The notes under the pieces were generated by a model. It made no database searches. It worked only from the letters and a program-made list of their open reading frames with translations, and was not told the DNA's origin. Positions 25,560 through 64,000 of a DNA stretch of 64,000 bases are shown here, piece by piece. The stretch comes from Psammoneis japonica (taxonomy: Eukaryota): contig QPGO01000148.1 in assembly GCA_008632985.1 (NCBI GenBank), positions 1-64,000 on the forward strand. The letters run 5' to 3'. The position numbers were made by a program, and so were the translations under genes. Positions within the stretch are counted from its first letter, which is position 1, and each line of letters opens with the position of its first letter.

Positions 25560-25830
25560 GTTCCGCCAGATGAAGAAGACAATTGGGTTGTGCAGCGCAA
25601 CTGTGTCAATGGGGGATGGAGATCAGATGCTGCGGTGCAGTGCCAAGACAGGTGACACTGCACGTTGTTTTCAGAGTCAAATCCACGTTGTCCGCAACGA
25701 GGACAACTGAAAGACTTGGTGGAAACGGCGGAACGGAGGCAGCCAGTTGCGATGTGCCTGCTGAGGCCACGTTCGGAAAAGAAACCGGTTCGTTCACACC
25801 ATGGACAAACAAGACCATCAGACGACATGG
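25560..25830 (-). pseudogene. N-terminus of a protein with two C2H2-like zinc fingers, truncated (possible transposase start)
   Basis: CPWC...GLSRH and CPRC...VQCHLSWH, oriented inward from the terminus at 26743. Confidence 0.45.
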
Positions 25831-41113: not shown

Positions 41114-41675
41114 CACTGCAAATGAGAATCACTCTGAATAAGCTGTTTTCGCTCTAAATAAAAAATAAACAGAGCATTTTGCTCCGATTGCAAGTGCTAA
41201 ATAATTAATTGTGGCTTTGCTCTATTTAAGCCATAGTCAGAGCGACATGCTCTGTGTATAAGACAATCAGAGCAAAATGCCAACATTTGCCCTGTTCAAC
41301 CGCATTCAGAGGATGCCTTCGATTAAGTGCAATTATTCAGGGCATTCGCTTCAAATAACTGCAGCCTCCTGCGACCTTTTACATTCTCAGAGCAAATGGT
41401 TTTTCTTCAAAGCAAACGAACAATGAACACATGCACACACAATGAGACGCAATGATGGACGATTCAAAGCGTCATTGGCGCACATGCACGCATGCATTCA
41501 TGGTTGCCAGTCAATGCTCGTAATCTCGTCGTTTTTGTTTGCGGCGATCTCGACGAGCATCGTTGTTGCTCTGTTGTTGTCAATTGTCGCCTGTGTCGGC
41601 GCATCGCACACACAACACAATTTTTGCATTTCCACCTTTATGTCTGTGTGAGTCGTGGCCTCCACAGCCTTCTCC

Positions 41676-44600: not shown

Positions 44601-44955
44601 CACTGTGTGGTTGTTGTTTCAACCAGTGGGTGAAAAAGGAGCTGCTCGCTCCTCTGCAACTGCAGTTGCTTTAGAATTTGTGGATGAGGAAGGTGAAGAA
44701 ATTTTGGACTTGTGTTGGATGGCGCCAGTTCAAGCAACAGACAGGAGAAAATCATTTGATGCGGCAACAGATCTTTGCAACAGTTTGGGACATCAGTTTG
44801 TGCTGGCATTGCCAAGGATGGAAGATGATGGTGAAACTTTCCTAAACAGCTTTTATTGTGTCAGCCATCTGTGGAATGAAAGAACCAGAGATGGATGCTT
44901 TGTGAAAATGGAACTCAGCTTGGACGTTTTCGACGATTGGTTGACAGCCGGCTAA
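41676..44955 (+). pseudogene. CMC/EnSpm-type transposase, frameshifted (A-rich run near 44240)
   Basis: WRDDFDPN, VDRPER...HNG, PMHTIGLGNVK correspond to the CACTA DGF, DxPAR...HxG and MHxxxLGxxK motifs; Cys-rich N-terminus. Confidence 0.8.
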
Positions 44956-45158
44956 CCATCAACTGCTCTGTCATCCATCTCGGTTGACAATCCAGCCTGT
45001 GTGGGGGAGACAATGGCATGAGCAGTGCACGTGCTCCAATGGTGGATGGACCCGTGAAGGAGCAGCGCACATGCTCTTTTGTTTAAAGACGCGCCATTGT
45101 GGCCGACACGCAGCTAGCTGCGGGGGACAAGAAGGACATGCGAGCTGGGTGTCTGCTC

Positions 45159-48100
45159 TCATTTCATGTTCCTCTTTCTCTTTATGAAGTGGAGCTGCAC
45201 AGATTGGTCCCTCATTGCGTTTGACATTTTGTTTTTGGCCAAAATGTCCAACATCGCCTCTGGTGGATTAGACAGCAGTTTGTCAAAATTGAACTCAAAT
45301 GCAATTTGAATGGGACCATGATCCCAGGTCGACCCGGCCCAATCATTGTCCTCACACAGTTCTTTGGCAATCTCCTCCATCTTTTTTTCCTCACTTTTGT
45401 GTGAAAAGTTTTGGATCAATCCACCGGGAGGCAGCTCTTCGGGGTCACTGGAACCATCAAAGTGACAAAGAAAATTCGCCTCATCGTGGAAAACAAAAAA
45501 TGACATTCCTGCAAAACAGACATCGCAGCAGTTTACCCTCCCTTTGCTGATCCAGAAGTGAAACATTTTGCAAAGAATGTTCTCAACAAAACGAATGGTG
45601 AAGTGAGTGTCTTTCTTGTCATCACCCCCGGGGTTGTTCAACTGCACGGTGAATGCACCCTGTGTGGTTTGAGCCAAACGGAACATGTCCGCATCGTCCA
45701 TCTTGCCCAGTCCACATTCTTCGGCAATTTTTATGTCAGGGAGGGAATCCTTTTTGCAGTGGCAATGATGCAGCATCCAAATGGGAAGCTGGCCAATTTC
45801 TGCCATGATCGCAATCGAATGATTGAGACACAAGACGTCGCATTGCGGGGAGAATTCAGACAACTGATTCATCAGTTTCTTGTAAATGGAGACGATGTCT
45901 TTGTTTTGTGGCTTGTTTGCATGCTCATTCCAAATGTCACAAATCCACTTTCCCTTTTCATCATTCCGTTTTTTCCATTCAGCCTTGGTTGGCAAGGGTG
46001 GTCTCTTGCTGCGTGACGCACATCGCAGAGGGATGCCTCTAGAATGTGCCTCTTTTACGTGGACCATCATTTCGTGAATGAGATGTCCCAATCCGCAGGG
46101 GTCGCTTGGTGGCTGGAAGGCATTGACGGATGAAAGAACCAACGCAACTGCTCCAAAGCAACATGACTGCGCCGGGTGCACCTCGAAGCAAGTCTGAACA
46201 GCGACAATCTGCGGCAACGTAAGTGAGAATTTGTCAATCATTGCGACAATGAAGTGCAGAAAGAGCTGGTGGCATGACGTTGGTTCCATGTTGCAGTCGC
46301 CTTTTAATGCATCGATTCCTTTGCATCCCTCAAATCCTGTCAAGTGATCATGGACAATTGCCGGCTCCAGTCGCTGCCGGTGCACGGGCAAGTTTTGGCA
46401 GGTGCGAATGGCTTGTGTTGTGATGGGCAAGGCAAGTCGAATCCTCTTCTCCGCAGTTTCTACAGAACTGCGGGTGCAAGCAATGACAGCATCTCTTGTT
46501 TCTCCATCATTTGTGATTTTTGAAACAGACAAAACTGGGGTCATGTCTTTGTTTTGGCCGTTGCATTCATCCGAGTGGCAATCCGTAATTTTGCCAAATT
46601 TGGCATTTGCCAGACGCAGTGCCTCCACGACATCATTTGCTGAGGCATCCGGCAATGAACCCGCATGGTCTTGACGTTGGTTTTTCATCTCTTCATCGTG
46701 CCACAATCTAGATGTAAAAGCAGGATTCAGTGTCTCCGCAATTTCAGACATTGACTCAAAAAAAGGCATTGCTTCCTCAGTCCCTTTCCCAACTCGAGGC
46801 CGTGCAACGCCATCAGCATGGCCTTCCCTTGTAGTGCTTGTGTTGGTGCAAACGCCGAAATCTGCAAAGTGGTCCTTTGGTTGACGATGGGTCCCAGTTT
46901 TCTTGGGCTTGTTGCTTTTCTTTTTCTGAAAACGTTTTCTCTTGCCAGTTTTCTTGCCAACATTGCCTTTCCTTGTTTTCTTTCCCTGGTTGCTTTTCGA
47001 CTCACGTTCATGGCATTTGTCAATCAGCACGCGCGATCGGTCCCAGTCAATGCGGCAGATTGGGTGTTTGTTTGGAAAGTGGTCAAGCACCAACATGAAG
47101 TCATTGCAATGGTCGGAATCAACATCATGCAAGGACCATTTGATGTCAGTTTCATCCTGTCCAAGTGTCAACGCCAAATCCAGAATTGGCACTTGGCAGT
47201 GGGGGATGTCTGCTCTGCTTGCCAAGTGAACCTGCAGTTTCGACTGGAAGACAACATGCAGATGGGTGGCACACTTTTGCCTGCATTCTCCAGACAGTTT
47301 CCCCAAATTGTCAAGTGCTTTGGCTTTTCCAGAATTACAACGGAAGTGAGCACTGTTCATCTCCTCAAACACAAAAACAACATTGAACATGTTTTTGGCA
47401 TGCAAGCTCTGTTCTTGCAGCAGGGAACGGGACAACACTGTTTTCTCCCGCCGAGTCTTGCAGTTGCCAGTGAAAGTTGGACGCTGCATCTGCAAGGGCA
47501 GTGCTGCCTCAAAAGCGCTTGAATGGCAATCAGATGATTCGTCTCTGCTTCCATTGGGCAAATCAGAATCGGAGAAATCAATGGGAAGTGCTGACACAAC
47601 TGCGCCATCATGCCAATGCGATGATGATTGGTCGCTCTGACTTGAGAAAACAGAATCAATGACATCACTGTTTGTTGATTGTTCCTCGACGTGATGCACA
47701 GAAGCCGAGTCCTCATGGCGTTTTGCTTCTTCCCGCATGTGCTGCACACTCAGCAAGCAAAGCAACCGGTCTGCTGGTCTTCGCTTGCGAGGAGGTGGAG
47801 ACCGTCCCAGGGGAGATTCCAGGCTGCGTGACCTGGATGTGGCAGATCTTGTGCGGTGTGAGATTGGACTGCTGCTTCTGTTTCTGCGGAGTTGCATTTG
47901 ACAAAATGGGACCATGCCACTGTTGGTGGGTTGACTTGTTCTGCTTGAACTCCTTGAGCGGATGCTGTCATCTGCAGAACGTGCGGGAGGATGGCTTTTG
48001 TCCCAACCGCGACTCTCAGATTTCCTCAATGCACCCAACCTGTGTGAGCGCAACGAATGCCTGGGTTTGCGAACACGCGATCGACCCCGACACCTGGATG

Positions 48101-48854
48101 GTGACCTCAACATTGTTGGAGACCTGTTTTTTGACCTGGAGGGTGACCTGCACCTGGATGGTGACCTGTGCGGTGACCTGTGTCTACGCCGAGGTGACAA
48201 TCTAGACCTTTCATTGGAAGAATCCAGAGACCTTCGACAAGACCATTGCGGTGAACTGGATGGAGACCTTTGGCGTGACCTCTGCCGCGATTGCAATCGA
48301 CCTTGGTGATCCCTGCATGGAGAGCAGGGAACAGCACCACAACGTTCCCTGCAACTGTGCCGGGAACTTGAGTTGTGGCAACCCATGGATGGTGACCGAC
48401 ACCGTCGCCGATGCCTTCGACAAGAATGAGACCTAGACCCAGAACAACGAGACCTTGATTGACAAGGAGAACCACGCAAAGAAGCTCCAGAATGACAATG
48501 ATGTCTGGTCCGATGACGCGATCGAGACCGAGAACTTGACAAAGAGCGAGACCGAGAACTTGACCAAGACCGGGACGGCGATTGACACCTTCGTCGTTGG
48601 TGGGAATTCGACCTCGACAGGCATCGCCGTTTAGACAGTCTGCGTTCCCTGGATCCGTCGTTTCGATTTGACCACAACCGACCTGTGGAACTTTGAACAG
48701 GCGATTCGGATCTTTGACGAATCAAGCGACCCGGCGGATCTCTTGATGGACGCGCACTCCTTGTCCTTCTTCCCTTCGGAGCGCCGGATCTGCTCCAAGC
48801 GGGAGCGTCACATTTGCCTTTTCTGTGATGCATGGATGGTTGGAATTTGAGCAA
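45159..48854 (-). CDS. 1231-aa RS-rich protein with TET/JBP-like and HhH/ADDT-like motifs (hypermutated cargo)
   Basis: DGVARP, CHSDECN, RDAVIACTR, FVENILCK; collinear with the 220-3122 protein. Confidence 0.6.
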   Translation of the reverse strand: MLKFQPSMHHRKGKCDAPAWSRSGAPKGRRTRSARPSRDPPGRLIRQRSESPVQSSTGRLWSNRNDGSRERRLSKRRCLSRSNSHQRRRCQSPSRSWSSSRSRSLSSSRSRSRHRTRHHCHSGASLRGSPCQSRSRCSGSRSHSCRRHRRRCRSPSMGCHNSSSRHSCRERCGAVPCSPCRDHQGRLQSRQRSRQRSPSSSPQWSCRRSLDSSNERSRLSPRRRHRSPHRSPSRCRSPSRSKNRSPTMLRSPSRCRGRSRVRKPRHSLRSHRLGALRKSESRGWDKSHPPARSADDSIRSRSSSRTSQPTNSGMVPFCQMQLRRNRSSSPISHRTRSATSRSRSLESPLGRSPPPRKRRPADRLLCLLSVQHMREEAKRHEDSASVHHVEEQSTNSDVIDSVFSSQSDQSSSHWHDGAVVSALPIDFSDSDLPNGSRDESSDCHSSAFEAALPLQMQRPTFTGNCKTRREKTVLSRSLLQEQSLHAKNMFNVVFVFEEMNSAHFRCNSGKAKALDNLGKLSGECRQKCATHLHVVFQSKLQVHLASRADIPHCQVPILDLALTLGQDETDIKWSLHDVDSDHCNDFMLVLDHFPNKHPICRIDWDRSRVLIDKCHERESKSNQGKKTRKGNVGKKTGKRKRFQKKKSNKPKKTGTHRQPKDHFADFGVCTNTSTTREGHADGVARPRVGKGTEEAMPFFESMSEIAETLNPAFTSRLWHDEEMKNQRQDHAGSLPDASANDVVEALRLANAKFGKITDCHSDECNGQNKDMTPVLSVSKITNDGETRDAVIACTRSSVETAEKRIRLALPITTQAIRTCQNLPVHRQRLEPAIVHDHLTGFEGCKGIDALKGDCNMEPTSCHQLFLHFIVAMIDKFSLTLPQIVAVQTCFEVHPAQSCCFGAVALVLSSVNAFQPPSDPCGLGHLIHEMMVHVKEAHSRGIPLRCASRSKRPPLPTKAEWKKRNDEKGKWICDIWNEHANKPQNKDIVSIYKKLMNQLSEFSPQCDVLCLNHSIAIMAEIGQLPIWMLHHCHCKKDSLPDIKIAEECGLGKMDDADMFRLAQTTQGAFTVQLNNPGGDDKKDTHFTIRFVENILCKMFHFWISKGRVNCCDVCFAGMSFFVFHDEANFLCHFDGSSDPEELPPGGLIQNFSHKSEEKKMEEIAKELCEDNDWAGSTWDHGPIQIAFEFNFDKLLSNPPEAMLDILAKNKMSNAMRDQSVQLHFIKRKRNMK

Positions 48855-49524
48855 GCAGATGCTGCAATGAAAAACAATGAGAGCAGAACAGCTTCACAAC
48901 TCCTTTGTCATTTGTGCAAGAGTGTGATTGTGCGATGATGATGTCGCCTTCATCTGGTCGTGATTGAGAGATGATGTATGTTGGGTGAGTCAGAACACCG
49001 GAATCCGGAATTTTGCATGTCATCCCCTCACGTGGCCAACTGGTTGTGGCCGCCTGCAGCGCCACAAACAGAACACCACAAAAATTCTGCATTCATTGTA
49101 GAATTTAATGAGAAAACAAGTCCCCTCTTTTCTGTGACATCACTGCATTTGCCGCATGTTACAATGACACAAATGTCGGAAAAGCGTGCATCCACAACAC
49201 CGCCGCTGACACCGCTGTTGTCATCAAACTTTGCTGTTCATGCAATGCTGTCATCATTCATCCTTCCATTGCATGTTGTCATTCTCATCAACTTGTTGAC
49301 AAGTGTTGACAACATTGTGACCTTTGGTGAAGGTTCATTGCGAGACACCACCAGAACCGAAACTTCATCGCTGCTGTGAGAACAATGCTGAGCTCACGGC
49401 GCAGTCTGCACATTGTTTCTTTATCTCGCATCTCAGACAATTTGGTGTGCATGCTGCACTTCGTTGACTCTTTACAATCATCATCAGGTGCTGCCACGAA
49501 ATTGGTTGCAGACAAAGTCAGCAA

Positions 49525-50757
49525 CTTCCCTGTGTCTCCGCGTCAACTGCTGACAATTGCACAGCAACGGACGAGTGGGACTGCCAGTCCGTCGCCCAGC
49601 GACATTCCGCTGATCGGTTTTCAACAATGAGACCTGGAGAACTGGCTGGGGCACCCTCGTTGTGTTGTGCAGTTTGAAGAAAAGGGGACCGGCTGATCTG
49701 GGTTGTGTTGGCAGACGGCGCAAGCTCCTTTTTCCTTGACATTGTCAAGAACATGTGTGTTCCAAGGCCACCATTGTCGGTGGGTCGTCTCCGTCTGTCA
49801 CATCTCTTCCCTGTGTCTCCGCGTCAACTGCTGACAATTGCACAGCAACGGACGAGTGGGACTGCCAGTCCGTCGCCCAGTGATGTTCCGCCAATCGGTT
49901 TTCAATGACAAGACCTGGAGAACTGGCTGGGGCACCCTCGTTGTGTTGTGCAGTTTGAAGAAAAGGGGACCGGCTGATCTGGGTTGTGTTGGCAGACGGG
50001 GCAAGCTCCTTTTTCCTTGACATTGTCAAGAACACATGTGTTCCAAGGCCACTGTTGTCGGTGGGTCGTCTCCGTCTGTTGCATCTCTTCCCTGTGTCTC
50101 CGCGTCAACTGCTGACAATTGTGCAGCAACGGACGAGTGGGACTGCCAGTCCGTCGCCCAGTGACATTCCGCCAATCGGTTTTCAACAACAAGACCTGGA
50201 GAACTGGCTGGGGCACCCTCGTTGTGTTGCACAGTTTGAAGAAAAGGGGACCGGCTGATCTGGGTTGTGTTGGCAGACGGGGCAAGCTCCTTTTTCCTTG
50301 ACATTGTCAAGAACACATGTGTTCCAAGGCCACTGTTGTCGGTGGGTCGTCTCCGTCTGTTGCATCTCTTCCCTGTGTCTCCGCGTCAACTGCTGACAAT
50401 TGTGCAGCAACGGACGAGTGGGACTGCCAGTCCGTCGCCCAGTGACATTCCGCCAATCGGTTTTCAACAACAAGACCTGGAGAACTGGCTGGGGCACCCT
50501 CGTTGTGTTGTGCAGTTTGAAGAAAAGGGGACCGGCTGATCTGGGTTGTGTTGGCAGACGGCGTGAGCTCCTTTTTCCTTGACGTTGTCAAGAACACACA
50601 CTTTCCAAGGCCACTGTTGTCGGTGGGTCGTCATCGTCTGTTGCATCTCTTCCCTGTGTTTCCGCGTCTGTCGCCCACCGACAGTCCGCCAACTGGGTTT
50701 TCAACAACAAGACCTGGAGAACTGGCTGGGGCACCCTCGTTGTGTTGTGCAGTTTGA
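49525..50757. repeat. 281-bp tandem repeat, ~4.4 copies, inside the CACTA element
   Basis: Unit starts at 49525, 49806, 50087, 50368, 50649; last copy internally deleted. Confidence 0.95.
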
Positions 50758-50800
50758 CGCAAACAAGGCAGCAGCAAAGGGAAGCGAGGATTCGCCTGCG

Positions 50801-53800
50801 ATGTCAAGGGACAATGGAATGAAAGCTCTTGCCAAAGCGGCTGTTGTGGCTTCCCGAGAAGAGAATGAGGAAATCCGGTTGTCACAGGAGGAGAACAACC
50901 ACAATTCCCAGGAAGAAGATGTGGAAGAAGAGGAGGAGGAAATGCCGGAGGAAATGCGGACATCAGAGGAGGACAAGGAAGCTGTGAATTCTAAGGAAAT
51001 GGACAATGATGCTTCTCAGGAGAAGAAAGATGCGGGTTCTTTACCAAAATCATCAAAATCCAAGGAGGGGGACATTCAACACATTCCCACCAAGCTCCGG
51101 CGTTTTGTGAATGCAATCAAACATGACATGTCAAAGCGTGTGTGGGACAATGTCCACCACACTTGTCCCTTGTTTACCGTGGTCAACCCAAGCACAGAAC
51201 CAAAATCACTGACAACACTGGCAAATTCTGGACGCGGGCCGAACAATCGCGGGAAGAAACACATTTTGTTGCATCACAACCAGAAGGGGTTGTCATCCGA
51301 CTTCGGCAAAGAAGCAAGTAAAAAAGCAAGGGCAGCTGTAAAGGATTTTCTTCTTCGTGAATTTAATCAAGAAAACGAAGGCGACATTGTCGACTTGTTG
51401 AACAACAAACACACTCACATTTTGGGAATTTGTGCAATGCCAAAAAATCAAGAAAGTGGCAAACTGGCAACTGATCTTGTCGCTGCATTGTTGTGTCGGT
51501 GCATTGAATTGGTGCCAGCAACAATTGTTGACCATGTTTGAGTCGACAGAGGAGCCAAAGTGCACAACCATGGGTTGTGCCCCTTCCTGATTAGCCTGGC
51601 TCAATCTGTCGGCCACACGGTTGTTGGCACTTGGGACACAATGCTGCATTGTCAAGTCAAGCTCAAACAACACTGCTGTGAAAGTTTGGGTTTCGAGGAC
51701 ATCACAGAGGAAATGAATGAGGAGCCCTCTTGGGAAAGAGTGAGACACCATTGGAGTTGGAATGCTTTGATCAAAGAGGACGGAGATGACACCAGGGCAC
51801 TGATGGTGAAACGCAGAGTCACCACACGTTGTGCAAAAATTGCGTTGCCCATCTCTCACACAGAGGATGATTTCCAGTGCAATGTAAAACATTGGCGAGA
51901 TCGTGTTGGGTTCTGGAGCAGCAAGAAGAGACCCGCCGATCAACACCAAGATTTGGTGGATCAAGAGAAAGACCTCATCTACAAATCGTCAGTGGTGATG
52001 GTTGGTGATGCGACACTGGATTCTTTTAAAGATTCCTGGCAAAAACACATGGATGGACGCCAATGGTTTGACACTGGAAAGTGCATTCACGAATCCTGCG
52101 AATGTTGCGTGGGTGCAAGTGACGCCAACCAAGTTAAGTCACATTTCGAGACAACGGCTTTGTTTGCCGCAAGCGTCAATTTCTCCTGCCAAATGAGCAA
52201 ATTGGCAAATGATGAAACATGGAAAAGAGCGGCATTTTGATCGAGGACTTCCGAGCTGGCTCAAAGAGCGAAATGTGTGAGGGGCAAGTTTGACGCAACT
52301 GCGGAGTCGGGAACTGACAACCGGAAGTGTGTTCTCAACCCCAAGCATTGCCAACGGAGTCGGAGCGATTCAGATGAAGACATGGAAATGGAAATGCCTT
52401 TGGGTGATGATGGAGCCACACGTCAACTTCTTGAAAGCATCCATTTGAAGTGCAACACGTGCAACATGGTGTTTCCCATCGATTACAACCAGGAAGATCA
52501 AGGTGGACTGTCACCAGCAGCAACTTTGTTTTCAGCGCTTGCGGGACCTTGCCATGATCATGCAATGTGTGTTCCGGGCAAGTGCCCCATTTGCACTGCA
52601 CAAAGCAAAAGTGCAGTGTACGAACTGCTGGTTGGTGCTGCATGAGAAGACAGAGAAACTCTGAAGGACCTAGAGAAACGCCAAGTGCGGTTGAACAAAA
52701 AGGATTTCTTTCTGCCACCTTTGCGACACATTGCAATTTGGTGCAAAGAAGCGGAACAACTGCATTGGTGCCAGATCAATCGGTCATTCCGACAATGTCG
52801 TTTTACAGAGCTGGCGAAGGAGGCGATGCTTGACAAAAAATTCTCTGCAAGGGGAAACAAGAGAGAAAAGAAGGAACCGAAACCACAAGAGGGAGATGGT
52901 GACCTAGAGGAAGAGGAGTCCGAATTGGAACCAGAAGATCAAGGTCTCCTTGTGTCACAAAGAAAAGTGTTGTCTGCCAGGGACAAGAAATGTCAAGATC
53001 TACGTCATGAGGCGAGGATGTGCTGTGAGGATGCCAAAGAATTGGAACGGCTGCATGGTTTTGAGCAGGTCGATCGGGCCACACGGCCGGATGAAAGTGA
53101 GGTGCCAGGTGATGCTGTTGATTGTGAAGGACCAGTTTTACATGGATGGTTCGAAGATTTCAAGCACGGCAGAACATTTGCTGGAGACTGTTTTGGAGCG
53201 ACGAATGACAAGGACATTGGAGGAGGGCCGATGAACCTTGTTCGAGCCGCAATTGAGGAAGCTAAAAAGAAACCTGACACAAGAGTGATTTTCAATGCCA
53301 GACAAAAGAGGCAAATTGGCAAAAGAGCTGATCACGCAACAAACAATGGTCAGGTTCACAAAGTGAGATGGCTGACAGCAAAGGAGCCAATGAAGGAGGG
53401 GCTTGTGGCCGATGATGATTTTGAAGGTCCGGAGGGAACGCCAGCATTTGTGGGGGTTGGCACAAGGAAGAAACCGTGCCATCACACCATGGAGTGGGCA
53501 AGAGCCAATTTTCAGCAGCGATGTCCCACAGTGCACAAGGCCATGTGTGATTGGGAACCAGGGAAGAAATGGTGCAGACTGCCGGAGGGTCACGTGTTGG
53601 ATAAAAGCGGGCTGGAATTTCCCAGCTCGGGACCCCCAGTCAAACATCAACAAGGGGAGAAAGACACGTGCGTGTTTTTGAGCCTGGCCAGTGTCCCAAA
53701 TTACATTGGAGATGAAAGGATGGAGCGACACATTGTGAATTGCATGGATCATTCTTGCAGATCAGAGAACACCAACAACAAACGGTTGGAGTTTGCCGTT

Positions 53801-54199
53801 GGCATGTTGTTGGGACAAAAGCAGAAGCTTTGTCCTCCACTGGCTGCATCAATGAAGTGGCGCGCATGCAAGAAGCGTCAGAAAATGGCAGCTGGCAAGA
53901 GGGGATTCTTCGATTTGACCACCCACGTTGCCGATGACATCGTTCTTTGTCGGTTGACAAACAATCACTGCATTGCTTTGCACGGTGGTTGGATCTTCGA
54001 CTCCAATCATGAATTCGCTCTTCCGGCAAAAGACATTCAGTGGTTGAATTGGTGTTTGGGGAATGACACATTTGAAACAGATGCACTGGCAGAAGATCCA
54101 AAATCAGCAGTGGAGGAAGCAGTTTTTTTTGAAATGCCGAAGGCTGTCCAAACAAGGTTGCGTAAATGCAAGCGGCAAGACAATGCAACCACAGGTTAA
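50801..54199 (+). pseudogene. ~1130-codon GNAT acetyltransferase + papain-like (C39-like) peptidase fusion, broken by three in-frame TGA
   Basis: ORFs 50579, 51560, 52277 and 52685 share one frame. GNAT-like NHGL..FLI and CCESLGF (=YYESLGF). Peptidase QQGEKDTCVFLSLAS, NHCIAL, WIFDSN. Confidence 0.65.
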
Positions 54200-55569
54200 T
54201 TCTTCTCACTTGGCATGGTTGTCGGGGCCAACGATTTCCAGGCATGCAGGCGTTTGCGAGTCACCAATGTTTTGCTGACAAGCCCGGCCTTTTCTGCAGC
54301 ACGCAACAGTTGGCACGTTTGCGGCAGTGTGTGAGGCTTCCCACCAAGGACATTCATCATGAGCCCCTTGGTTTGAAAACACGTGCCCGCGGGTTGATCC
54401 GCAAAATGACTGAGCAATTTGTGCACGCCGCTCATTTCCTCGTCCGTGTGCGGGTGTGCGTTTAACCAACAGCGGCATCCATCAACAATGCATTGGCTCA
54501 CAAGAGGCTTCGTCCACTGATCGTGCTTTTGGACTTTCACGTTGTCCAATGGGGTGGCGCAAAGCAAAGGAAGGAAACGATTCTTGGTCGCTGGCGTCAG
54601 ATCACTTCGTTTCACAGGAGCAAACACAAGCAAGCCGCTGCCCCACGCATCTTGCTCTGTCACTTTGAGTTTCTTTAGGACAGTTTGTTGACGCTTGGCT
54701 GTGAGACAAAACTGTGAAGTTGCAGTCTTCCATGTCATGACAATTTGTTTGCAATCCATGCCCGTGGAGGTGCCACGATTGGGAAGAGATGATGTCATGC
54801 TGCAAAACCGATTGTGATGATCGGGTTTTGCTAAAACTGTGCCAGCTTGCAGCCATTTGCCCATGGCAACACAGGCAACAGCATCAACAAAATGCTTGGG
54901 TTTAGCCAGGCATGACAGCATGCATCCACTGCGTCCGCCTGTCACAATTTCGTCAACAACAATCTCAAAGGAATGGCGGTGAGCCAACCGACCAAGAGAT
55001 TCTAGAAAGTTGTCGCTGAGTGTTGCACCATTGTTTGCCAGCATTAATTCTAAAAACAATGCAGCGATTGGCACCTTCTTTGCAGCCTGCATCAAACAAC
55101 GGAGATGAATGTGGTTGAGACAATCGTTTTCGCACTCACTGAGCTCCGCGGAGCTCAGAGTGCCTGGCACATGATGCGGCAGCACAATGGTGTGATTGCG
55201 TGTAAAAGAGTCAAACACGTCGTCCGGATGCATTGCTGCGCTCGGACCATGTTCTGCACTGAACGTGCTGGCAGTCCAACAGTGGACAGGCCCATGATCA
55301 CCGGCCACATAACTTCCACATGCAATCAAACATCCGTCATTGTGCCCTCCCGTCACAGAATTAATTGCAAACAAATTTGCATCGGAGCCGTTTGGCATCA
55401 CTTTGTGCAGCAGCAATTCACCATCAAAGTGACGAAAAACAACTTCTTCTAACTGCTTGTGGTGGCCGATGTCCATGGAAGAATTCATCAAATCTTCGCC
55501 ATTGCGTTTTAAGCCACGCGGGCTAACGGCAACCAAATTGCACCCCCAATTGTTTGCCATGTCGTCCAT
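54196..55569 (-). CDS. class-III PLP-dependent aminotransferase-like protein (hypermutated cargo)
   Basis: NGSDAN, GSYVAG, LFLE, VVDEIVTGGRSG, MGKWLQAG. Confidence 0.75.
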   Translation of the reverse strand: MDDMANNWGCNLVAVSPRGLKRNGEDLMNSSMDIGHHKQLEEVVFRHFDGELLLHKVMPNGSDANLFAINSVTGGHNDGCLIACGSYVAGDHGPVHCWTASTFSAEHGPSAAMHPDDVFDSFTRNHTIVLPHHVPGTLSSAELSECENDCLNHIHLRCLMQAAKKVPIAALFLELMLANNGATLSDNFLESLGRLAHRHSFEIVVDEIVTGGRSGCMLSCLAKPKHFVDAVACVAMGKWLQAGTVLAKPDHHNRFCSMTSSLPNRGTSTGMDCKQIVMTWKTATSQFCLTAKRQQTVLKKLKVTEQDAWGSGLLVFAPVKRSDLTPATKNRFLPLLCATPLDNVKVQKHDQWTKPLVSQCIVDGCRCWLNAHPHTDEEMSGVHKLLSHFADQPAGTCFQTKGLMMNVLGGKPHTLPQTCQLLRAAEKAGLVSKTLVTRKRLHAWKSLAPTTMPSEKN

Positions 55570-56447
55570 GGCGTCGTTTGGGATTGTTCAATGCGCAAAA
55601 GAGCAAGATGCAAGATTCAAGAAGAGTCCCAAAAGATGATTGGATGGAAAAGAGGGGAGGGATCGCAGCTCTGTTGATGGGCTTACACAGCGCAGAGGAT
55701 TTGTGAAAATGAGGTGGAGCAACGCATGTGCTCTCAATCACCAAAAGCGCAAAACACGTGCATTCTGCTGCACTGCGCATTTGCAGACAAGCCCTGCACG
55801 CAGGGCCCCACACATGTTCCACACGCTGAAAGAGCAGCACGCGCGCGCACATGCACTCCCACCCAATCGTGTGATTGCACAATGCATTTCATTCAACAAC
55901 GTAGATGAAGCAAGCACTTTAAAAAAGAACACACATGAAAAATCAAACTTCAATTGTGGAAAATCATGCATTCAAAAGTGAACCAATGAGAACCCAATTT
56001 TTGTTCAAGGAAAATTTTGTTTCAAATGGGAGGAAAGAACAATCTTCTTAACACAACAGGTCGACATGGTTGTCAATGTTCATTTCAGAACAACAATGCT
56101 TGATTGAAACAATGAAAAATGCAGAAAAGAACAAAACTGAATGCAATTCAAAAACCGTGCAATGAGAACATGCAACCGTGACTTTGCAATTGTGTTGAAC
56201 AGATTCGGCTCGTCCCGGACCATCCACAAGCACAAAAAGCGATTAGAAGTCGAAAACACAATGACAAATTCATTTCATCAGACACAGGTGTCGGTCGTCA
56301 GCCTTGATCTTACAAACACATCGAGGGCAAACACTTCAACAGAGGGAAACACAACCCCGTCAAGGACAGATGTTGCAACAGTGGGGAACACAGGTGGGTG
56401 CATTTGAAATCAAAGTGTGCGTTTGGAAGCTAACATTGTGATCTGAC

Positions 56448-57743
56448 ATGCAGTGGGAAGCTTCCACAACAAATCCAGGGGAAAAAATGACAGCACCCAA
56501 TCGTCCATTGGATCATCCAAGAGACTTTTTCCATCCGACGACAGGGGCCAACCCCACAAGACCAGAGGATGCTGCTCTTTTGTGGTCATGCCGAAAGGCA
56601 CGTCCACAACTTGGTGAGGTGGAGACGGTGCCACCCAATGGCAAGAAGATGCTGCAAGAGGTGGCACAAATCCGGTCGTCCCTTCGACAACACGTCATGA
56701 CTCAACACCTGGAGGGCTGTCGGAAAAATGCAATGGACAAGGAAGTGGCAATGCCATCAACAAACACCAATCCCGTCACAACAGAAGACTTCAAAAACAT
56801 TCTGGCAAGCATGGACAACACAACCGAGAATCAGCAGCTCGTGTGTCAAGTTTTCCATGCCTTTCATCACAACAGAGGATGGCTGGCTGCTGCCATTGAC
56901 AAATGGTTCACCGCAAACAACACGAAGCTCATGCTGCACGCCACGGACGCTTCCAGCAAACCTCGCAAAATGTGTCGCGATGACAGAGGCGGGTTTGCTG
57001 TGGTGGCACGCCAAGCCAAATGTCAAATGATTAAAACGTTCATGGAGTTTATGCTGCGGAAAGCAGGCTGGTGTGTGGCAACTACAATGCACAAGAGCAA
57101 CAAGGAGAATGGAGGTAAAACACATGTGGCCGTCCCCGCTGCAACCAATGCGGAAACAACAACCAAAGCAAAGTTTTACGTCGTGTCGATGAAACCAGTG
57201 GCGGTGAGTTAGTCGCACATTGTTTGTTTGTCCTTTTGTTGACAATCTTGTTTGGTTGACGACTTCGTCCCCATTTCCGGTCCTTGACAGCAGGAGGAGA
57301 ACACCGAAGCATCAAAACAAGTTGCTCAGGGAGCATCCAGCAAAGACATTGACATTGCATCCCTTGTGGACCTCACGAAAACAGCAAGCATGTTGTCAGA
57401 ACAAATGGGAGTTCTGCTGTCCAAGGAAGATTTGCTCCAGTCGATTCGTGGCAGCATGACAGTCACCAGTTCATCCCAAATGGTCAACGAAGAGATTGTG
57501 CTTGATCCGCAACATGAGTCCAAAACTCAGGTGTCAACACTGACCATGGACACCGCGCTAAATTGCCCATCCGAACCAACGGCAAAGCGGAAGTTAACCG
57601 AGAAGGAGAAGGAGGCAGAGCAAATTCCTCGTCGGGAGCGCAATGATGAACTAGAACCCCTCACCATGGATTTGGATGTCATCGATGGTTGGAATTCCAA
57701 TGACGAAGAGTTGGCAGAAATGGTGTCACAGGTGACTGTGTGA
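56448..57743 (+). CDS. hypothetical cargo protein, probably two exons (intron starting GTGAGT near 57204)
   Basis: 254-aa ORF plus a downstream charged ORF; no family recognised. Confidence 0.4.
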
Positions 57744-57959
57744 TTTGGTGGTCCAATTGCTGTGGTGTTGGATGGCTCTAACCAACTTCCGCTTTGATGC
57801 CTTGTTTGGCTTGTCAGACACAGTTGTCTGGGTCCCCTTGTTGCAGGACGGAACAAGAGCCCGGGAGCGCTCCAGCGGTGAGAAAAATGTGTTGTGTCAT
57901 GCGGCTGAATTGCACGTCGCTCACACCACTGTTCTTCATGCAAAAGGTTGATGAGATGG

Positions 57960-58530
57960 ACGAGCCAACTGGTGCAAAAGAAAAGGTGAGAGCATTGTCG
58001 GTGCTCCAGCTGTCAATTTGGACTGTTGCTCCAACAGCTCTTTGGCCTCATTGGGTTGCTGGATGCCACACCAAACCATCCCAGACAGTTGAAACACTGG
58101 AGCGAGCACAAAAAAAACAAGTGAGTGAACAGAGTTCTGAGGCAGAGCGCGACACATGGATTGGATTGACCAATCACACTGCTCCTGCTGTTCTTTATGA
58201 CCAGGCAAATGAGGTGGTTGACAGTGGCAACAATGAAAAGGTGAGAGCAATGTCGGTGCTCCAGTTGCAAATGAAACAATTGCTCCAACCACTTTGGGGC
58301 GTCATTGCTGGATGCCAGACTCAACCATCCCCAGTTGCTGAAATGCCAGAGAGAGCACCACAGAAGATGGCAAGATCACATTGTCTTGCAGCCAATTGTG
58401 CAATTCATCGGACACGTCTCACACAGCCATTGTTGTTTGCAATGAGAAAGGTCGAAGAGACAATGGCAAATGGCGCAAATGAAAAGGTGAGAGCATTGTT
58501 GGTGCTCCGGATTGCCATTGAGAAGTTGAT
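57960..58530. repeat. three diverged ~250-bp units sharing GAAAAGGTGAGAGCAwTGTyGGTGCTCC
   Basis: Core motif at ~57980, ~58235 and ~58481. Confidence 0.7.
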
Positions 58531-58889
58531 CTGACGGCATTCAATGTGTGTCATGATGGCATTTCTTTTGCAGACTCAACCAGCCAACCACTCTAAACCA
58601 TTGTTAAATCCATTGCAAAACAAAGCGGTGAGAATGCATGATGAAGTCGTGCGGATTGTGCGCAGCATCTTGGAAACATCACCTCTCACTTTGTTGTTTG
58701 TTTGCAACAAAGACAAAGACAGCAAATGACAAACGCACACACAAAACTACAACACTCGTTGTGGCTCAAGTGGATCAAACAACTGCTTGCAATTTGCAGG
58801 CACAGAGCAAACGTCATTGTTGATTTGGCATGCCTGTTGTTGTGTTGTCTTGTTCACGCACGCAAACCAATTGTGTTTGTTTGTTTGTG

Positions 58890-59205
58890 TTTGCAGTGCA
58901 AGTGCGAGGAGGCTCACTTGTTCCATGCCTTGGTCCATCAAGATGACGGAAAATATTTCACTCAAGCACACTTCAAAACCAACCCACTGTTCCCTGCAAA
59001 GTGCTGTGGCGAAAAGTGTGATGTTGTTTTTGGATCAAGCAGTTACAAGGTTGGACAAAGAAAGGCAGTTTGGGTTTGCATGAACACATTGAATGGTTCT
59101 TGCAATTGCAGGTTTGCATTGTGTGTGCAGTGTCATCAAAAGACCATGTCAGCTGCATCTAACAAACGGCGCCGAAGGACAACCCGAAACAACAACAACA
59201 AATGA
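58890..59205 (+). CDS. Cys-rich zinc-finger-like exon (CCGEKC...WVC...CRFALCVQC) with basic tail
   Basis: Cys spacing; note some Cys may be mutated Tyr. Confidence 0.35.
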
Positions 59206-59782
59206 CAAGGCAACGCAACACATGCGCACGACGCAACACAATGTGCAATTGCTTGGGATTGATTTCACCGGCACAGTCAGGGTTCGGCGGATGTGTTTGT
59301 CAACAGAGTCAATCGAAGCACAGCTTCGTAAATGACAGTTGTTCAGAGCATCAGCAAATTTGTTCACAGTTGTGATCTGTTTAAATGGAGAGGCTGTCGT
59401 CATCCGTTGTTCATTCAGAGCTTTGCTCTAGTTAAATGTCCGTTGTTCATTCAGAGCTTTGCTCCAATTAAATGGAGATTCCACGGGCATCCAAACATTG
59501 TTCAGAGTCGTGCTCTGATTGAATGGACACAATCACAGCAGCGCTCTGAATGTCAGCACAATGCTCTAATTTGCAAATCAATGCTCTGGATGCAATGCTC
59601 CAAACAAAATTCTATGGCTTCGAATGACCAAATTTACTCTGATTGTGCTCTGTGTGGGCGTCATTGCCTCAATTGGCTCTCATTTGCTCTGAATGTCCCA
59701 CATTGTGTCGGGACAATTTAAACAAAGCGTTGCTCAGAATAAAATGTTCGGAGCATGAATGAAGAGAATCTCATCTGCAGTG

Positions 59783-60174
59783 TTGCATCCCTTGGACGCT
59801 GCCACCATGGCGAGACCGACACCCGCATTGCCCGACGTGGGCTCCACCAGAGTCGTTTTGCCAGGTTCAATGTCACCGCGCTTTTCGGCTTCCGCAATCA
59901 TGGAAAAGGCAATGCGGTCCTTGACGGAATTGGCGGGATTCAAGGACTCGAGCTTGGCGACCATTTCAGCGACACAACCGTCTGTGACCTTGTTGAGCTT
60001 CATGAGTGGAGTGTTGCCAATCAGATCCAACATGGAGTCGGCAATCTTGGACTGGGCGTGCAGTGCAACATGACGAGTCTTCTTGGTGGAGGATGACAGA
60101 GAAGGAACAGGCGCAAAGGCACACGACAAGGCCACGAGAGAAGCAGCGACTGCGGCCAAGCAAAGGAACTTCAT
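59783..60174 (-). pseudogene. cysK: cysteine synthase 5' half with bipartite plastid-targeting presequence
   Basis: Signal peptide + [40 protein letters not shown]. Confidence 0.95.
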
Positions 60175-60440
60175 CGTCTTCCGGCAAAATGTTGTGTGGG
60201 GTGAAGATTGAAGATCTTTCGCACATGGGCTCGCCCCGGCTTGGGAGGGCGGACAGCTTCAGGCTCGAATTATTTGACAGTGTGGAGTTCGCGCAGTGTC
60301 GCACTGGTGGGGCCCTGACAAGAATGGACACTGAACAAGCCAAGTGCAGGGGATCTGAGTCCTGTTGTGCAGTTGGAAGAGCTGACAATAGAGAGAATGA
60401 ACAATCTCTCTAATGTGCGTGTGCCGCACTCTAGATTGCC

Positions 60441-60464
60441 AGAGAGAGAGAGAGAGAGAGAGAG
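60441..60464. repeat. (AG)12 microsatellite
   Basis: Direct reading. Confidence 0.95.
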
Positions 60465-63400
60465 TTCGCATTCTTTTGGGCGAGTGCACGCATGGACATG
60501 TTTTCATGCCTTTGGGACAGAGAGTCCTTAAAATCCACACAAGAAGGGGACAACACAAAATGTGGGCTTGCGCAATCAGCACTGCCATCAAACGAACCAG
60601 AAAAACCGAGCTCCACATTTCAGAAAGCCACCTCTCTGGCGGGAGCAAATCAACAGTCGATTTTCATTTCTTCGGACCATTCCCCGTCCACGGACTCAAC
60701 TGTTCAACAGAAATGAATGCTGCAGACACGTCCACCTGCTCCTTGTCTTCCAACTCATGAAAATGTCTTCCAGCTTTGCAAGAGAGCATGTCTTTGTTGG
60801 GGCTGCATTGACCATGCCATGCCCAGTCCATCTTGCAGTTGCAGCAATTGGGCTGATTAAAGGCGCACGAAGCACAGGTGTGGTGTCATCCACAATGGCT
60901 CCCGGTTGCAGGCAGTTGGTCAAAACAATGTTTGGGTGGCCCCCACATGGCGCCAACACCCAAAAGGCAAACACATCACATGGCTTTTCCACCCAATTGG
61001 GTCGATCGCAAAGCATGTTGAGTTGCTCGACATTCTGACAATGAATCTGACAGAAAGAAGAAAAGAGAACACCACGAGTGCAGTGCTGAAACTGCAGAGC
61101 ATTGCCCAACAACAAGAGCTTGCCCAATCATGGTTGCAAATCTCGGTCTGATCCTCAATTCTGCACTTTGATCACCCTCTTCTCCAACGGCACACACTCT
61201 TTGGTGTCGGCTGCACTGTCTTCTTGTTGGTGCATTGCAGAAGGAAGGAGATCCATCATGGTGGGTTGAGGAGTTGGTGGCGCGGGGTTGGTGTCATTTC
61301 CAGGAGCTTCGGGGTTGGAGTCGGGGTGGGGTGTCTGTGACTGGATGCGCACCCGTGATTTCAACTTCAGCAAAAGCTGGGACTCAACGATGTGTCAACA
61401 TTTGTTTCCTTCATGTTCAGAGTGTGTTGCGTGCTTCCAAAGTTTGGGGTGGGAGTGTTCTTGTCCATTGTGTTCAACTTTGCAGCTGGCATCCAGGCAG
61501 TGCAAACCGTTCCCAGTGCACGAGATGTCAGAAGAACTTGAATGGCTCCTTCTTTTTGACCAGCGTTAAAGCCAGTCTTGCAGTTGAAGTTGACACAGCA
61601 GCATTCTTTGGCTTGGTCCCCTGCTGCTCTGACAACAAAATTGCTTCATCCTGGGACGTGCCACAGTCAATGGCGCCAGCTGCCCAGCCGCTCCAAGACT
61701 CATCAAGAGCATTGAATTTGTCACATGCCGGACACTGCACCAACCCAATTGGTGGGGCTTGGTGCCATTGAAGCACAATTTTGTGCCACTCTCACCATGG
61801 GAGTGTCCCACAACACTGCTGAAGAAAAATGGCATGCAAGCACACAGTGTGAGTCCTTTTGCTTTCAACTTGTTTGATCCAACTTGCGCTCAACCTTGCC
61901 TTTTGATTGTCACAGTCCTGCGACTCTCCAGAGTGAGCGAGATTGAGGTTGTGTCCTGAAAAGAGAAGAAGCAGGGTTGCCAGCCATGTGGCAATGGCGG
62001 ATTCTTCCACTGTCGATGCAACAAGCCTCAATCACTCACCAATCTCATGCATTTGAGCAGAGACGAATTTGCACCATTCATTGTTGAAAACCAAAAGTCT
62101 GCCCCTGATGCATTTGCAGGCTGCACAACTTCCCTGCAGACACAGCATGACATGGTCACAGTCATTGGATGGGCTTCCAAGAGCTGCGTTGGCTGCGTTT
62201 TGAATGACCGCCCTGGCGATGCTAAGCTGGCCATGAGAGCATGCACTGCACTGGGAGGTGAGATTGACTTGGTCGCTGATGGGGTTGCCAAAGACTGCAC
62301 TGTGATTGGTTTTGTCATTGATGGCAGTTGAAGAATCAGCTTCGTCGTCTTTGACAGCCAATGTGCTCTTTGGACCGGTGGCAGTCACTGCTGGGTTACG
62401 TCAGCTGCGATCCATCAATCAAAGGACTGGGTTGGCACCAACAGGACACTCGACTCAGTCATCTTTGGCAGACACTCCACCCTTTCCTGCCTCTTCAAAG
62501 AATCTCCACTCAACGCATTTGGCAAGATGAGCAAATCCAATGTTCTGAGCCACGGAGACAGACACTGGGCGAGGTGAAATCAAAGCAACATCTCCTCTGA
62601 GATTGGAAAATGCACAGCAACATTCAAGCGCGCGAGTTGCTGGTGTCCTGGCTGGACAGAGAGCACGGAAGCATGGAACTTGTTCAACGAGCCACATGCA
62701 GGATGTGGGCCATCTGAGAAAATCAAGACACAATCATCTCTGAAGATCCTCTGGCGACAGCAAAGCAAGGGCATCAGTTGGATTGCCAAGAGAGAGATTC
62801 GGACCGTGGCAGCAAAACAATGCCCCATGGTGGGTGGTGATGTGTGTGTGGCTGGCCGCTGGCCGATGCGAAGAAACAGCGATCGCATCAGAAAACGTGT
62901 CTCTCAATGCAGCCCCATGACAAACACAAATGTCTGTCATGTGCGTGTCAACAGAAAGCACGACATAGATTTGTTGCCTCACACAGACTTTTGGCGAAGT
63001 CGCAGGAGCAAACGCAGCAAACAAAAAAACAAATTGTGGCCATGGCGCTGAAGATTGTACAAGTGGCGGTGTTCCAAGTTTGGATTCGAGATGATTACTT
63101 TGATTGAACCCAGTGCCATTTAAATTGTGTCAAAACCAACTTCGCACTTGACGGACACGATTGCCTTCACGCGAAAATCCGAAAGACGCAAGCACGCACT
63201 GTGCCCGCTGTGCCACGCACTTTCTTCATCTCACAATCGCAGTTCTGGCAAGAGAGTGAAGTGTCGCATCAACAATGTCACCATGTTGTCTTCTCTTGTC
63301 TTTGTGAACGTCGTGGTCAGCATTGGCCACCGTGACTTGATTGGAGTTATGATTCATCGCCAGAGCGCGTGCGATTGGCTTCGCGCCGGTCTTTGGTTCG

Positions 63401-64000
63401 GATGTTGCATGTTGCTTCAAGATCTCAACACAGTTGCCATCACGACATTCTCAGTGGTTCTCTGCATGGCTTGCGATGAGTGCATGAAACTCATGGACAC
63501 CTGGTTGCTCATCAAGCGGCAGAGCTTTCCGAGCGCCACTTTCAATTCGGTCTGGTCGTCCATCGTCGGGTCTCCCATCTGGAGCAAAGTCCATCTCTTC
63601 TTTGTCAAGCTCAAGTCATTCGCACTGAAGTGCATGGAGCTTGCTGTTTTCACATTGAAGGGAATCATCAAGCGTGTGGCTGGATGCGCGTTGCTTCTTT
63701 GTTCAAGCGTGCCGACAAGACAAGCGCCGCCGTCGTCTTGTTCAACGTCTGCCTGGCTTTCAAGAATTTCGATGTCAGCAGCCTCATGGGATTTCTCTTG
63801 CGTCTCATCCTGGGAGTGGCGCTGGCCTTTCTCATTCACGTGCATGCAACGGGATCGCATTTACCATCAACCGAGGAGGACCTGTCTGGCCATCGCGACG
63901 ACCATGTCAACAAGCCTTGGAAGGAGCCAACGTCCAAATTCAAGAAGGGACAGTGTGTGTGTCATCGCCATTCACACAAGACGTGGAGAGCAAAGATTTT

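Follow-up and report, generated by a model that had tools for sequence, protein, structure and literature searches.

Loss of TpA from one half of a cysteine-synthase gene split by a transposon in the diatom Psammoneis japonica

We analysed a stretch of nuclear DNA of 64,000 nucleotides from the diatom Psammoneis japonica (NCBI GenBank assembly GCA_008632985.1, contig QPGO01000148.1, positions 1 to 64,000 of the forward strand; hereafter "the window"), in which a gene for a plastid-type cysteine synthase (O-acetylserine (thiol) lyase) is cut in two by a DNA transposon of 18,669 bp. The 5' fragment of this gene does not contain a single TpA dinucleotide and lies in a long block of DNA almost deprived of TpA and enriched in TpG and CpA, while the 3' fragment, which lies outside the block, has kept most of its TpA. 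We explain this, with a probability which we put at about 80%, by a heterozygous insertion of an element with CACTG ends together with a regional hypermutation of TpA to TpG or CpA, which engulfed the 5' fragment.

The 5' fragment (59783..60174, minus strand) comprises codons 1-130 and two further bases. Its signal peptide ends between LSCAF and AP, and its open reading frame (ORF) continues to 59734, within foreign sequence. The 3' fragment (40414..41113, minus strand) runs up to the stop codon; counted with the bases at the junction, the 3' part of the gene spans 40414-41116, in two frames, since a frameshift has occurred in it. The gene is broken exactly after KG(Y). The Pfam profile PALP (PF00291) is matched in three pieces (E values 1.7e-20, 3.5e-20 and 2.6e-21): the 5' piece covers profile positions 3-79, and the 3' pieces cover 79-181 and 170-294. 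As positions 3-79 and 79-294 are contiguous, the two halves abut exactly and nothing was lost at the break. Among its homologues, the 5' piece comes closest to cysteine synthases of diatoms (identity of 59-84%, with 59-90% of the query covered), which also begin with MKF and carry the AF motif in their plastid signal; the named relatives of the neighbouring proteasome beta-1 gene in the window are diatom genes too, and the database searched contained no near-identical protein. The PALP fold, the SVKDR motif with the lysine that binds pyridoxal phosphate and the TSGNTG loop, as found in the CysK/O-acetylserine (thiol) lyase enzymes (PDB 1z7w, 2isq, 1oas), are recognisable across both fragments. 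However, in contrast to these enzymes, the copy of the window is a split and frameshifted pseudogene, with a Thr to Ala change in the loop and a Tyr to Cys change after it. Judged by its sequence, the gene is a descendant of the PALP family which is no longer a working member of it, being split, frameshifted and altered in its substrate loop.

The sequence which separates the two fragments (41114..59782) has the ends of a DNA transposon. Terminal inverted repeats of the form CACTGCA[A/G]ATGAGA[A/T]TC are found at 41114-41130 and, inverted, at 59766-59782 (15 of 17 positions alike), a target duplication TT is found at 41112-41113 and 59783-59784, and subterminal repeats are present at both ends, with 4 copies of CAGAGC within the first 350 bp and 5 of GCTCTG within the last 350 bp. 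These termini, the duplication and the subterminal repeats would fit an element of the CACTA/EnSpm-Mirage-Chapaev kind. We mapped the contigs of two public sequencing runs, X1 and X2, to positions 40400-60300 of the window. One X1 contig and one X2 contig of 1,079 nucleotides join 41111 directly to 59783, skipping 18,671 bases with two letters shared. An allele free of the insertion therefore exists, and the host would be diploid and heterozygous for the insertion. Other X1 contigs leave the element into other flanks, five from 41114 and three from 59783, and its interior is covered by many different contigs; this means that the element is present in several copies in the organism. The contigs of X2 and of a third run, X3, leave most of the transposon without cover, a gap which was not used as evidence. 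A scan of the 46 ORFs of the element with 110 codons or more gave no Pfam transposase; this copy is heavily mutated and may be non-autonomous. We also considered that the interrupting sequence could be an intron, as the 3' junction carries an acceptor-like tttgcag; there is however no GT donor, and the terminal inverted repeats, the target duplication and the empty-site contigs rule it out. Within the transposon, one can also notice a tandem repeat of 281 bp at 49525-50800, in at least four to five copies, in which six steps vary between CA and TG from copy to copy.

A preliminary description of this DNA had claimed that three codons of the 5' fragment, AAT GCG, GGT GTC and TGC (written with the neighbouring codon where the change crosses a codon junction), each result from a change of TA to TG. 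This is confirmed. We used the best 120 homologues listed, to which all the counts of homologues below refer: they agree on an ancestral TSGNTGIGL (120 of 120) and KGY (119 of 120, the remaining one having KGH), while the window reads TSGNAGVGL and KGC at these sites, so that the substrate loop TSGNTG of all 120 has become TSGNAG. Neither GNAGVG nor KGC, which the preliminary description had taken as foreign to functional orthologs, occurs in any of the 120. The changes are Thr to Ala at Ala117 (59824-59826), Ile to Val at Val119 (59818-59820) and Tyr to Cys at Cys130 (59785-59787), every one of them an A to G transition after a T. A further Thr to Ala change, at 59893-59895 (ttGCG), is likewise an A to G after a T, in a less conserved column. 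The Val found at the Ile position also occurs in a working enzyme of Arabidopsis, which reads TSGNTGVGLA (1z7w/2isq); hence Ile to Val alone would not show damage, and only the Thr to Ala and Tyr to Cys changes strike residues which are never replaced in the sets examined. For the motif AEMVAK a change of ATA to ATG had also been proposed. The ATG is there (59962-59964), but its origin is ambiguous: the homologues have Ile (81) or Val (39) in this column, so that GTG to ATG is as possible as ATA to ATG. This is one of two Ile/Val to Met changes of ambiguous origin in the 5' fragment. C:G to T:A changes are present as well: Ser to Leu (TCG to TTG), Val to Met (cGTG to cATG) and Leu to Phe.

The 392 bp of the 5' fragment contain 0 TpA, when 19.1 are expected from the base composition and about 10 at the rate of the 3' fragment. 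The absence of TA is not limited to coding sequence: the 530 bp from 59741 to 60270, coding and non-coding, are wholly without TA, and these include at least 96 bp upstream of the gene fragment. The 3' fragment (40414-41116) has 18 TpA in 703 bp, and its motif ERYLST has kept its Tyr as TAT. The contrast between the halves is significant (0 in 392 bp versus 18 in 703 bp, Fisher p = 6e-4; Poisson probability 4e-5 at the rate of the 3' half). The two halves, which had been suggested as an internal control, show a contrast which is strong but not all-or-none.

Indeed, the 3' half had been described as keeping TA and Tyr, which is true of the 18 TA and of ERYLST, but not of every site. At 41012-41014 (minus strand) Met has become Val in KGMGG (Val35, GTG); Met is present in 119 of the 120 homologues, and the insertion-free allele has a T at 41014 on the plus strand. 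The allele therefore reads TA where the window reads CA on the plus strand, that is tA to tG on the gene strand, and this is the single proven change of the TpA type in the 3' fragment. Two others, Lys to Glu (40868-40870; Lys in 106 of 120 homologues) and Tyr to His (40804-40806; Tyr in 108 of 120), are possible changes of the same type, as candidates set against the majority of the homologues. There is no gradient of surviving TA along the 3' fragment: 8 lie in the 350 bp next to the insert and 10 in the far 353 bp. The remaining differences are of other kinds. Transversions are found at the conserved Ile88 and Ser94; compared to the allele, there are two synonymous transitions outside TpA (at 40964 the window has CpG and the allele CpA; at 40994 they have AAA and AAG respectively); and an insertion of 4 bp at 40825-40828 (CACT on the gene strand), missing from the X2 allele contig, which has a gap at 40824, shifts the frame. 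The transversions and the frameshift show ordinary decay. As a separate remark, the inserted CACT corresponds to the first four letters of the transposon terminal repeat and can also be read as a tandem duplication of ACTC; it may have arisen by slippage or been left behind by an excision.

The direction of the mutations is fixed, as had been claimed. In the whole gene, the unambiguous A:T to G:C changes at conserved columns are seven, four of them in the 5' half (Ala94, Ala117, Val119, Cys130) and three in the 3' half (Val35, Glu83, His16), and 7 of 7 fall on TpA. As about 11% of the A/T bases of the 3' half sit in TpA, this would happen by chance with a probability of about 1.6e-7. The T of the allele at 41014 gives the same direction. 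That the mutations came after the insertion, also claimed before, is borne out by the allele, which is closer to the window in the 3' fragment than in the 5' fragment: the X2 allele contig shows 11 differences and a gap of 4 bp in 712 bp (1.5%) of the former, and 14 differences in 331 bp (4.2%) of the latter. The totals for the X2 run (window to read: C>T 5, G>A 5, T>C 4, A>G 3, and 6 transversions) would fit about eight TA to TG/CA changes and five or six C:G to T:A changes in the 5' fragment. The other copies of the transposon tell the same story: the X1 contigs which represent them differ from the window copy by 408 transitions and 71 transversions, among which are many adjacent pairs of TG and CA exchanged for one another. 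This means that each copy mutated after its own insertion.

The loss of TpA is not a property of the gene fragment but of the region. By dinucleotide counts, a block depleted in TpA and enriched in TG and CA extends from about 41400 to the end of the window (41400..64000) and continues past it; a second depleted block lies at 5900..26350 (70 TA versus 1272 expected, with an observed over expected ratio (o/e) of 0.42 for CpG). In the depleted blocks (6-26 kb and 41.4-64 kb), the o/e is 0.00-0.17 for TpA, 1.3-2.0 for TG and CA and 0.42-0.68 for CpG, while that of TpA is 0.25-0.78 outside them. The depletion spans about 43 kb of the window. In the interior of the transposon, the observed and expected numbers are 116 and 1170 for TA, 1784 and 1123 for TG, 1797 and 1136 for CA, and 743 and 1090 for CG: the excess of TG and CA (about 1320) is close to the sum of the missing TA (1054) and the missing CG (347). 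Between 60175 and 64000, 15 TA are found when 232 are expected.

The edges of the blocks are sharp to about 200-400 bp, and they do not coincide with the ends of the element. On the 3' side of the gene, the edge lies near 41400, about 290 bp inside the transposon: the 284 bp from 41117 to 41400 keep 16 TA (o/e 0.62). On the 5' side, 5 TA are left in the final 283 bp of the element and none in the gene fragment. The 5' fragment is thus flanked by depleted DNA on both sides, with an edge inside the element; hence the fragment was more probably engulfed by a mutated domain than reached by a simple outward leak. The preliminary description had seen here a spread into host sequence. A single-copy gene fragment and at least 96 bp upstream of it are indeed free of TA, but what reached them would be an engulfing domain and not a simple leak from the insert. 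A process which follows a domain, and not the borders of an element, is the better picture.

Comparing the copies of repeats pairwise (four families in the window), we counted 95 difference events, of which 47 are double changes between CA and TG, 21 are changes between CpG and TpG or CpA, and 14 are transversions. An exchange of CA for TG between copies is what independent changes of TA to CA and of TA to TG after duplication predict. TpA hypermutation of the kind described in Bigelowiella natans (see below) would leave almost no other type of mutation in the blocks; here there is also a component of CpG to TpG/CpA, which probably is a separate, slower process. The TAs which survive are not a random sample. 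In the blocks (6000-26300, 41401-59499 and 60175-64000), 193 of 402 neighbour counts (48%) belong to TAA/TTA, compared with 329 of 1534 (21%) in normal DNA, and 26 of 402 (6.5%) belong to TAT/ATA, compared with 380 of 1534 (25%); this bias suggests that the process prefers a sequence context wider than the dinucleotide. We found no strand runs of TG versus CA of the kind that a processive action on one strand would leave (runs-test z of -0.5 to -1.8 in depleted DNA and of -0.8 to -3.7 in normal DNA).

The depletion has a visible consequence for open reading frames. Because TAA and TAG have been removed, long and often overlapping open frames abound in the blocks, and they are nearly deprived of Tyr (1 in 1244, 2 in 774 and 1 in 517 residues in three of them) and rich in Cys and His. 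When 132 ORFs of the depleted blocks, each with 110 codons or more, were compared with Pfam, only three weak matches resulted, all below threshold, to RVT_2, zf-C2H2_4 and Aminotran_3. Several long open frames without relatives can be seen there, for example at 41939-44260, 52646-54196 and 23570-25261. The block at 5900-26350 contains a weak remnant of a Copia-type reverse transcriptase (11254-12027, minus strand), and its left edge lies in an unannotated ORF of 384 codons (5333-6487), which might be another host gene cut by the edge of a block.

The mechanism that we propose would run as follows. The 18.7-kb element with CACTG ends would have inserted into the coding sequence of the cysteine-synthase gene, on one chromosome of a diploid diatom. 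On that chromosome, a regional hypermutation would then turn TpA into TpG or CpA, by one A:T to G:C transition on either strand. It would be near saturation in a domain which takes in the greater part of the transposon, the isolated 5' fragment and no less than 3.8 kb of DNA upstream of it, while the 3' fragment, lying outside the domain with its edge about 290 bp inside the transposon, would mostly keep its TAs. A slower decay of CpG to TpG/CpA, as expected for methylated DNA, would go on alongside. We infer that the domain is a state of silenced chromatin and that the fragment was engulfed after the insertion had killed the gene. As TpA is self-complementary, the sequence does not separate a deamination of A (A to inosine, read as G) from an oxidation of T (T to 5-hydroxymethyluracil (5hmU) or 5-formyluracil (5fU), read as C); T>C and A>G being inseparable, thymine oxidation is a live rival to adenine deamination. 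By analogy with what has been proposed for Bigelowiella natans, we would favour an adenine deaminase of the ADAT2/TadA type over thymine oxidation, by roughly two to one.

The transposon itself carries a gene which bears on this choice. An open frame of 1244 codons (45162..48893, minus strand) belongs to an unannotated family: a word-indexed search for homologues found none, and an exhaustive search found 88 distant ones. In the copy of the window, a single one of the 1244 residues is Tyr, whereas the median share of Tyr in the 88 homologues is 3.5%, and Cys or His stands at 6 of 8 columns where the consensus has Tyr. We used the structure model of its best homologue (predicted local distance difference test (pLDDT) 86, predicted template modelling score (pTM) 0.81). 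The best four matches of model residues 1-352 are NgTET1 (5cg8; Z 8.7, root-mean-square deviation 3.6, 173 residues aligned), CcTet (7vpn; Z 7.5), TET2 (9hxv; Z 7.2) and CMD1 (7cy4; Z 7.0), and the AlkB family ranks below these four structures of the TET family; this part of the model is a double-stranded beta-helix domain like those of TET/JBP proteins. Model residues 355-663 match, with Z 8.0-7.4, the phage 5-phosphomethyl-dU glycinyltransferase (8z2m; Z 8.0), DUF2419 (7u07; Z 7.8) and helix-hairpin-helix (HhH) DNA glycosylases. Of the iron triad (HxD and a distal His) and the 2-oxoglutarate-binding Arg of TET/JBP dioxygenases, the HxD motif is invariant in the family and kept in the window copy, and conserved Arg residues follow in R..Y.R.S; no conserved distal His was seen between the two motifs in the family alignment. 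Pfam Tet_JBP does not match the ORF of the window, and no Pfam family (E<=0.01) was found in the 16 of the 88 homologues which were scanned. With the homologue model, Foldseek returned no PDB structure at E<=0.001; a profile compared with the sequences of the PDB yielded only a match attributable to chance (E 0.19), and the ESM Atlas gave no usable match. On the basis of the model, the ORF looks like a DNA base-modifying enzyme borne by a diatom transposon, with a TET/JBP-like domain and an HhH glycosylase-like domain.

Fungal DNA transposons, including EnSpm/CACTA and Plavaka lineages, carry genes for TET/JBP dioxygenases, according to a recent survey (Kojima 2025, PMC12730594). Compared with the elements described there, ours is alike in its CACTG ends, its short target duplication and a gene family with a TET/JBP-like fold; it differs in its diatom host, in having no Pfam Tet_JBP match and no evident distal His, in the fusion to an HhH glycosylase-like domain and in that no transposase is recognised in the copy. 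Two observations concern the same family. At 217-2079 (plus strand), in DNA which is not depleted, two consecutive ORFs weakly match the profile of the TET-like family (E 3e-7 and 5e-6, profile positions 20-266 and 272-355) and may be a second relative of it, unmutated or kept by the host. One of the 88 homologues, P0257, has only 0.48% Tyr and 8% Cys and His, and could likewise have been hypermutated, whether it comes from this organism or from a different one.

What such an enzyme could do leads to the first rival explanation, in which the mutagen is an oxidised thymine: a dioxygenase of the TET/JBP type, that which the transposon seems to encode or a host paralogue, would hydroxylate T at TpA in silenced or self-marked DNA, and 5hmU, 5fU or a modified form would mispair with G or be misrepaired, giving T>C as a by-product of a mark laid in cis. 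5-Formyluracil causes A:T to G:C mutations. The TET-like modelled fold of the ORF family, its invariant HxD and its C-terminal domain resembling a phage enzyme of thymidine hypermodification speak for this rival, but the missing conserved distal His, the lack of a Pfam Tet_JBP match and the empty Foldseek result at E<=0.001 speak against it, and Z values of 7-9 are in a common range. Moreover the window copy of the ORF is itself dead, with 1 Tyr left, and the depleted block at 6-26 kb shows no such TET-like gene. In dinoflagellates, according to one study, a TET/JBP homologue makes 5hmU, with a role in transposon silencing, and 5hmU replaces T preferentially in TA and TC (PMC11572971), which agrees with the dinucleotide affected here. 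On balance we think this chemistry unlikely, while taking it seriously.

The two other rivals do away with the hypermutation itself, and we find them much harder to believe. According to one, the changes are a reading artefact: a modification limited to the silenced chromosome would be misread, and the assembler would pick CA or TG at random where the true sequence is TA. A strand-specific misreading of a symmetric mark on TpA would also mix CA and TG and produce differences of CA versus TG between copies, and the library types of the runs are unrecorded. However, we know of no DNA modification which is read as a transition with an efficiency near 100%. In addition, 75% of the sampled 31-mers of 59300-60700 are found in X1 contigs, which means that the mutated text is reproducible at the level of k-mers; CpG is depleted, whereas double misreads would create CG; and the gene is broken anyway by the insertion and the 4-bp frameshift. 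The same changes are heritable in B. natans lines sequenced on Illumina (bioRxiv 10.64898/2026.01.13.699255). An artefact thus seems very improbable. According to the last rival, both fragments merely drift as ordinary pseudogenes, the TA-free 5' fragment and the TpA contexts being due to chance or to selection on codon usage. Decay of this kind agrees with the transversions at Ile88 and Ser94, the 4-bp frameshift and the synonymous transitions at 40964 and 40994, all in the 3' fragment; but it does not account for 530 bp of coding and non-coding DNA with 0 TA, for the 7 of 7 A:T to G:C changes at TpA (about 1.6e-7), or for some 43 kb depleted with a matching gain of TG and CA, and selection can act neither on a dead fragment nor in favour of Thr to Ala in a substrate loop. 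We regard it as hardly tenable.

Some points weigh against our preferred explanation, the domain-wide hypermutation of TpA after a heterozygous insertion. As a control, the 3' fragment is not entirely clean, since it has one proven TpA-type change and two possible ones, and when only conserved columns are counted the contrast between the halves (4 changes in 88 codons versus 3 in 232) has p = 0.09 only. For the 14 positions at which the allele departs from the 5' fragment, the contexts were deduced from the homologues and the run totals, and not base by base. The independence of the contigs from the assembly is not proven, because X1 may be the source sample of the window and the library type of X1 and X2 is unrecorded. 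Finally, the DNA at 60175-64000 may belong to the host or to a further mobile element: Pfam matched none of its 16 ORFs that were scanned.

A phenomenon of this kind has been described once before, in another lineage and with a natural control less clean than the one found here. In two viral regions integrated in the chlorarachniophyte B. natans, 231 new mutations were recorded, of which 230 were A>G or T>C, all of these on TpA, a signature measured de novo in mutation-accumulation lines. The preprint also mentions clusters elsewhere which are poor in TpA and rich in CpA and TpG, and proposes a candidate enzyme, which is ADAT2-like (Mettrop et al., bioRxiv 10.64898/2026.01.13.699255). The likeness between the two systems extends to the change itself (TpA to TpG/CpA), to its regional extent over tens of kb, to the foreign nature of the DNA targeted, to a lasting signature of low TpA accompanied by high CpA and TpG and to unannotatable genes. 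They differ in the lineage (Stramenopiles here, Rhizaria there), in the targets (a DNA transposon and a retrotransposon remnant here, inserts of giant viruses and virophages there) and in the depth of the depletion, with an o/e of about 0.05-0.10 here against 0.45 in the nucleocytoplasmic large DNA virus region of B. natans. In our case a single-copy host gene fragment was engulfed and an untouched allele serves as control, but we have a signature only and no rates; and whereas the preprint reports changes at TpA only, changes of CpG to TpG/CpA are also present here. The accessible text of the preprint does not mention diatoms, nor the words "flanking" or "spread". A preprint on SPLASH was also considered, but its mentions of diatoms and of hypermutation are unrelated. 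Our literature searches found no report of TpA hypermutation in diatoms.

The repeat-induced point mutation (RIP) of fungi is similar in its logic and opposite in its chemistry. RIP changes CpA/TpG to TpA, which lowers the content in guanine and cytosine (GC) and creates stop codons, and it leaks into adjacent single-copy DNA. Our case resembles RIP in ascomycetes in that mobile DNA is mutated after its insertion by a dinucleotide-specific transition, independently in each copy, with damage to adjoining unique genes. However, the direction is opposite: instead of C>T at CpA with a gain of TpA, we observe that TpA is lost, that CpA and TpG are gained, that GC goes up and that TAA and TAG are destroyed, so that long open frames and proteins free of Tyr result. 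With the ADAR and APOBEC deaminases, the case would share the inactivation of parasites by a deaminase and, for ADAR, A>G changes with a preference for U/T on the 5' side; these act, in contrast, on RNA or on intermediates of reverse transcription, whereas a DNA transposon and a chromosomal gene fragment are affected here, on both strands and without strand runs.

Two other features of the window may be recorded. An inverted repeat of 183 nt without spacer (38306-38671), 77% complementary and AT-rich (GC 0.35), lies just upstream of the proteasome beta-1 gene. An ORF of 1634 codons rich in Pro and Thr (26922-31826, plus strand), made of repeats of 108 nt and of 12/24 nt, lies in DNA of normal composition and has no Pfam match; none of the 6 long ORFs of normal DNA that were scanned matched Pfam.

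Targeted hypermutation of parasites is known from fungi (RIP, C>T) and from the deaminases of animals, and its A:T to G:C version limited to TpA was reported once, in 2026, in one chlorarachniophyte. A nearly saturated signature in a diatom suggests either an old origin of the system or a wide distribution of it among the major marine algae. To this the present locus adds an internal control, as one half of the gene lies inside the block and the other outside, and an allelic control (the insertion-free chromosome in the same cells), and it makes clear that a unique sequence of the host enjoys no protection within the domain. It also makes an annotation trap visible, as blocks without TAA and TAG stops and without tyrosines yield long ORFs free of homologues which resemble novel genes. 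A bolder reading, which we hold to be unlikely, would make TpA hypermutation a widespread system of the SAR clade (Stramenopiles, Alveolata and Rhizaria) instead of a peculiarity of Bigelowiella, whose diatom version would follow a heritable, allele-specific chromatin domain and not the identity of repeats, and whose chemistry would be the oxidation of thymine at TpA by TET/JBP-like enzymes, for example that of the inserted transposon, the mark itself being the mutagen; if this were true, any unique gene stranded in such a domain would be erased. Whatever the chemistry, the locus makes several questions concrete: what determines the edge of the domain, whether repeats are needed, whether the process takes place in mitosis or in sex, and which base is attacked.

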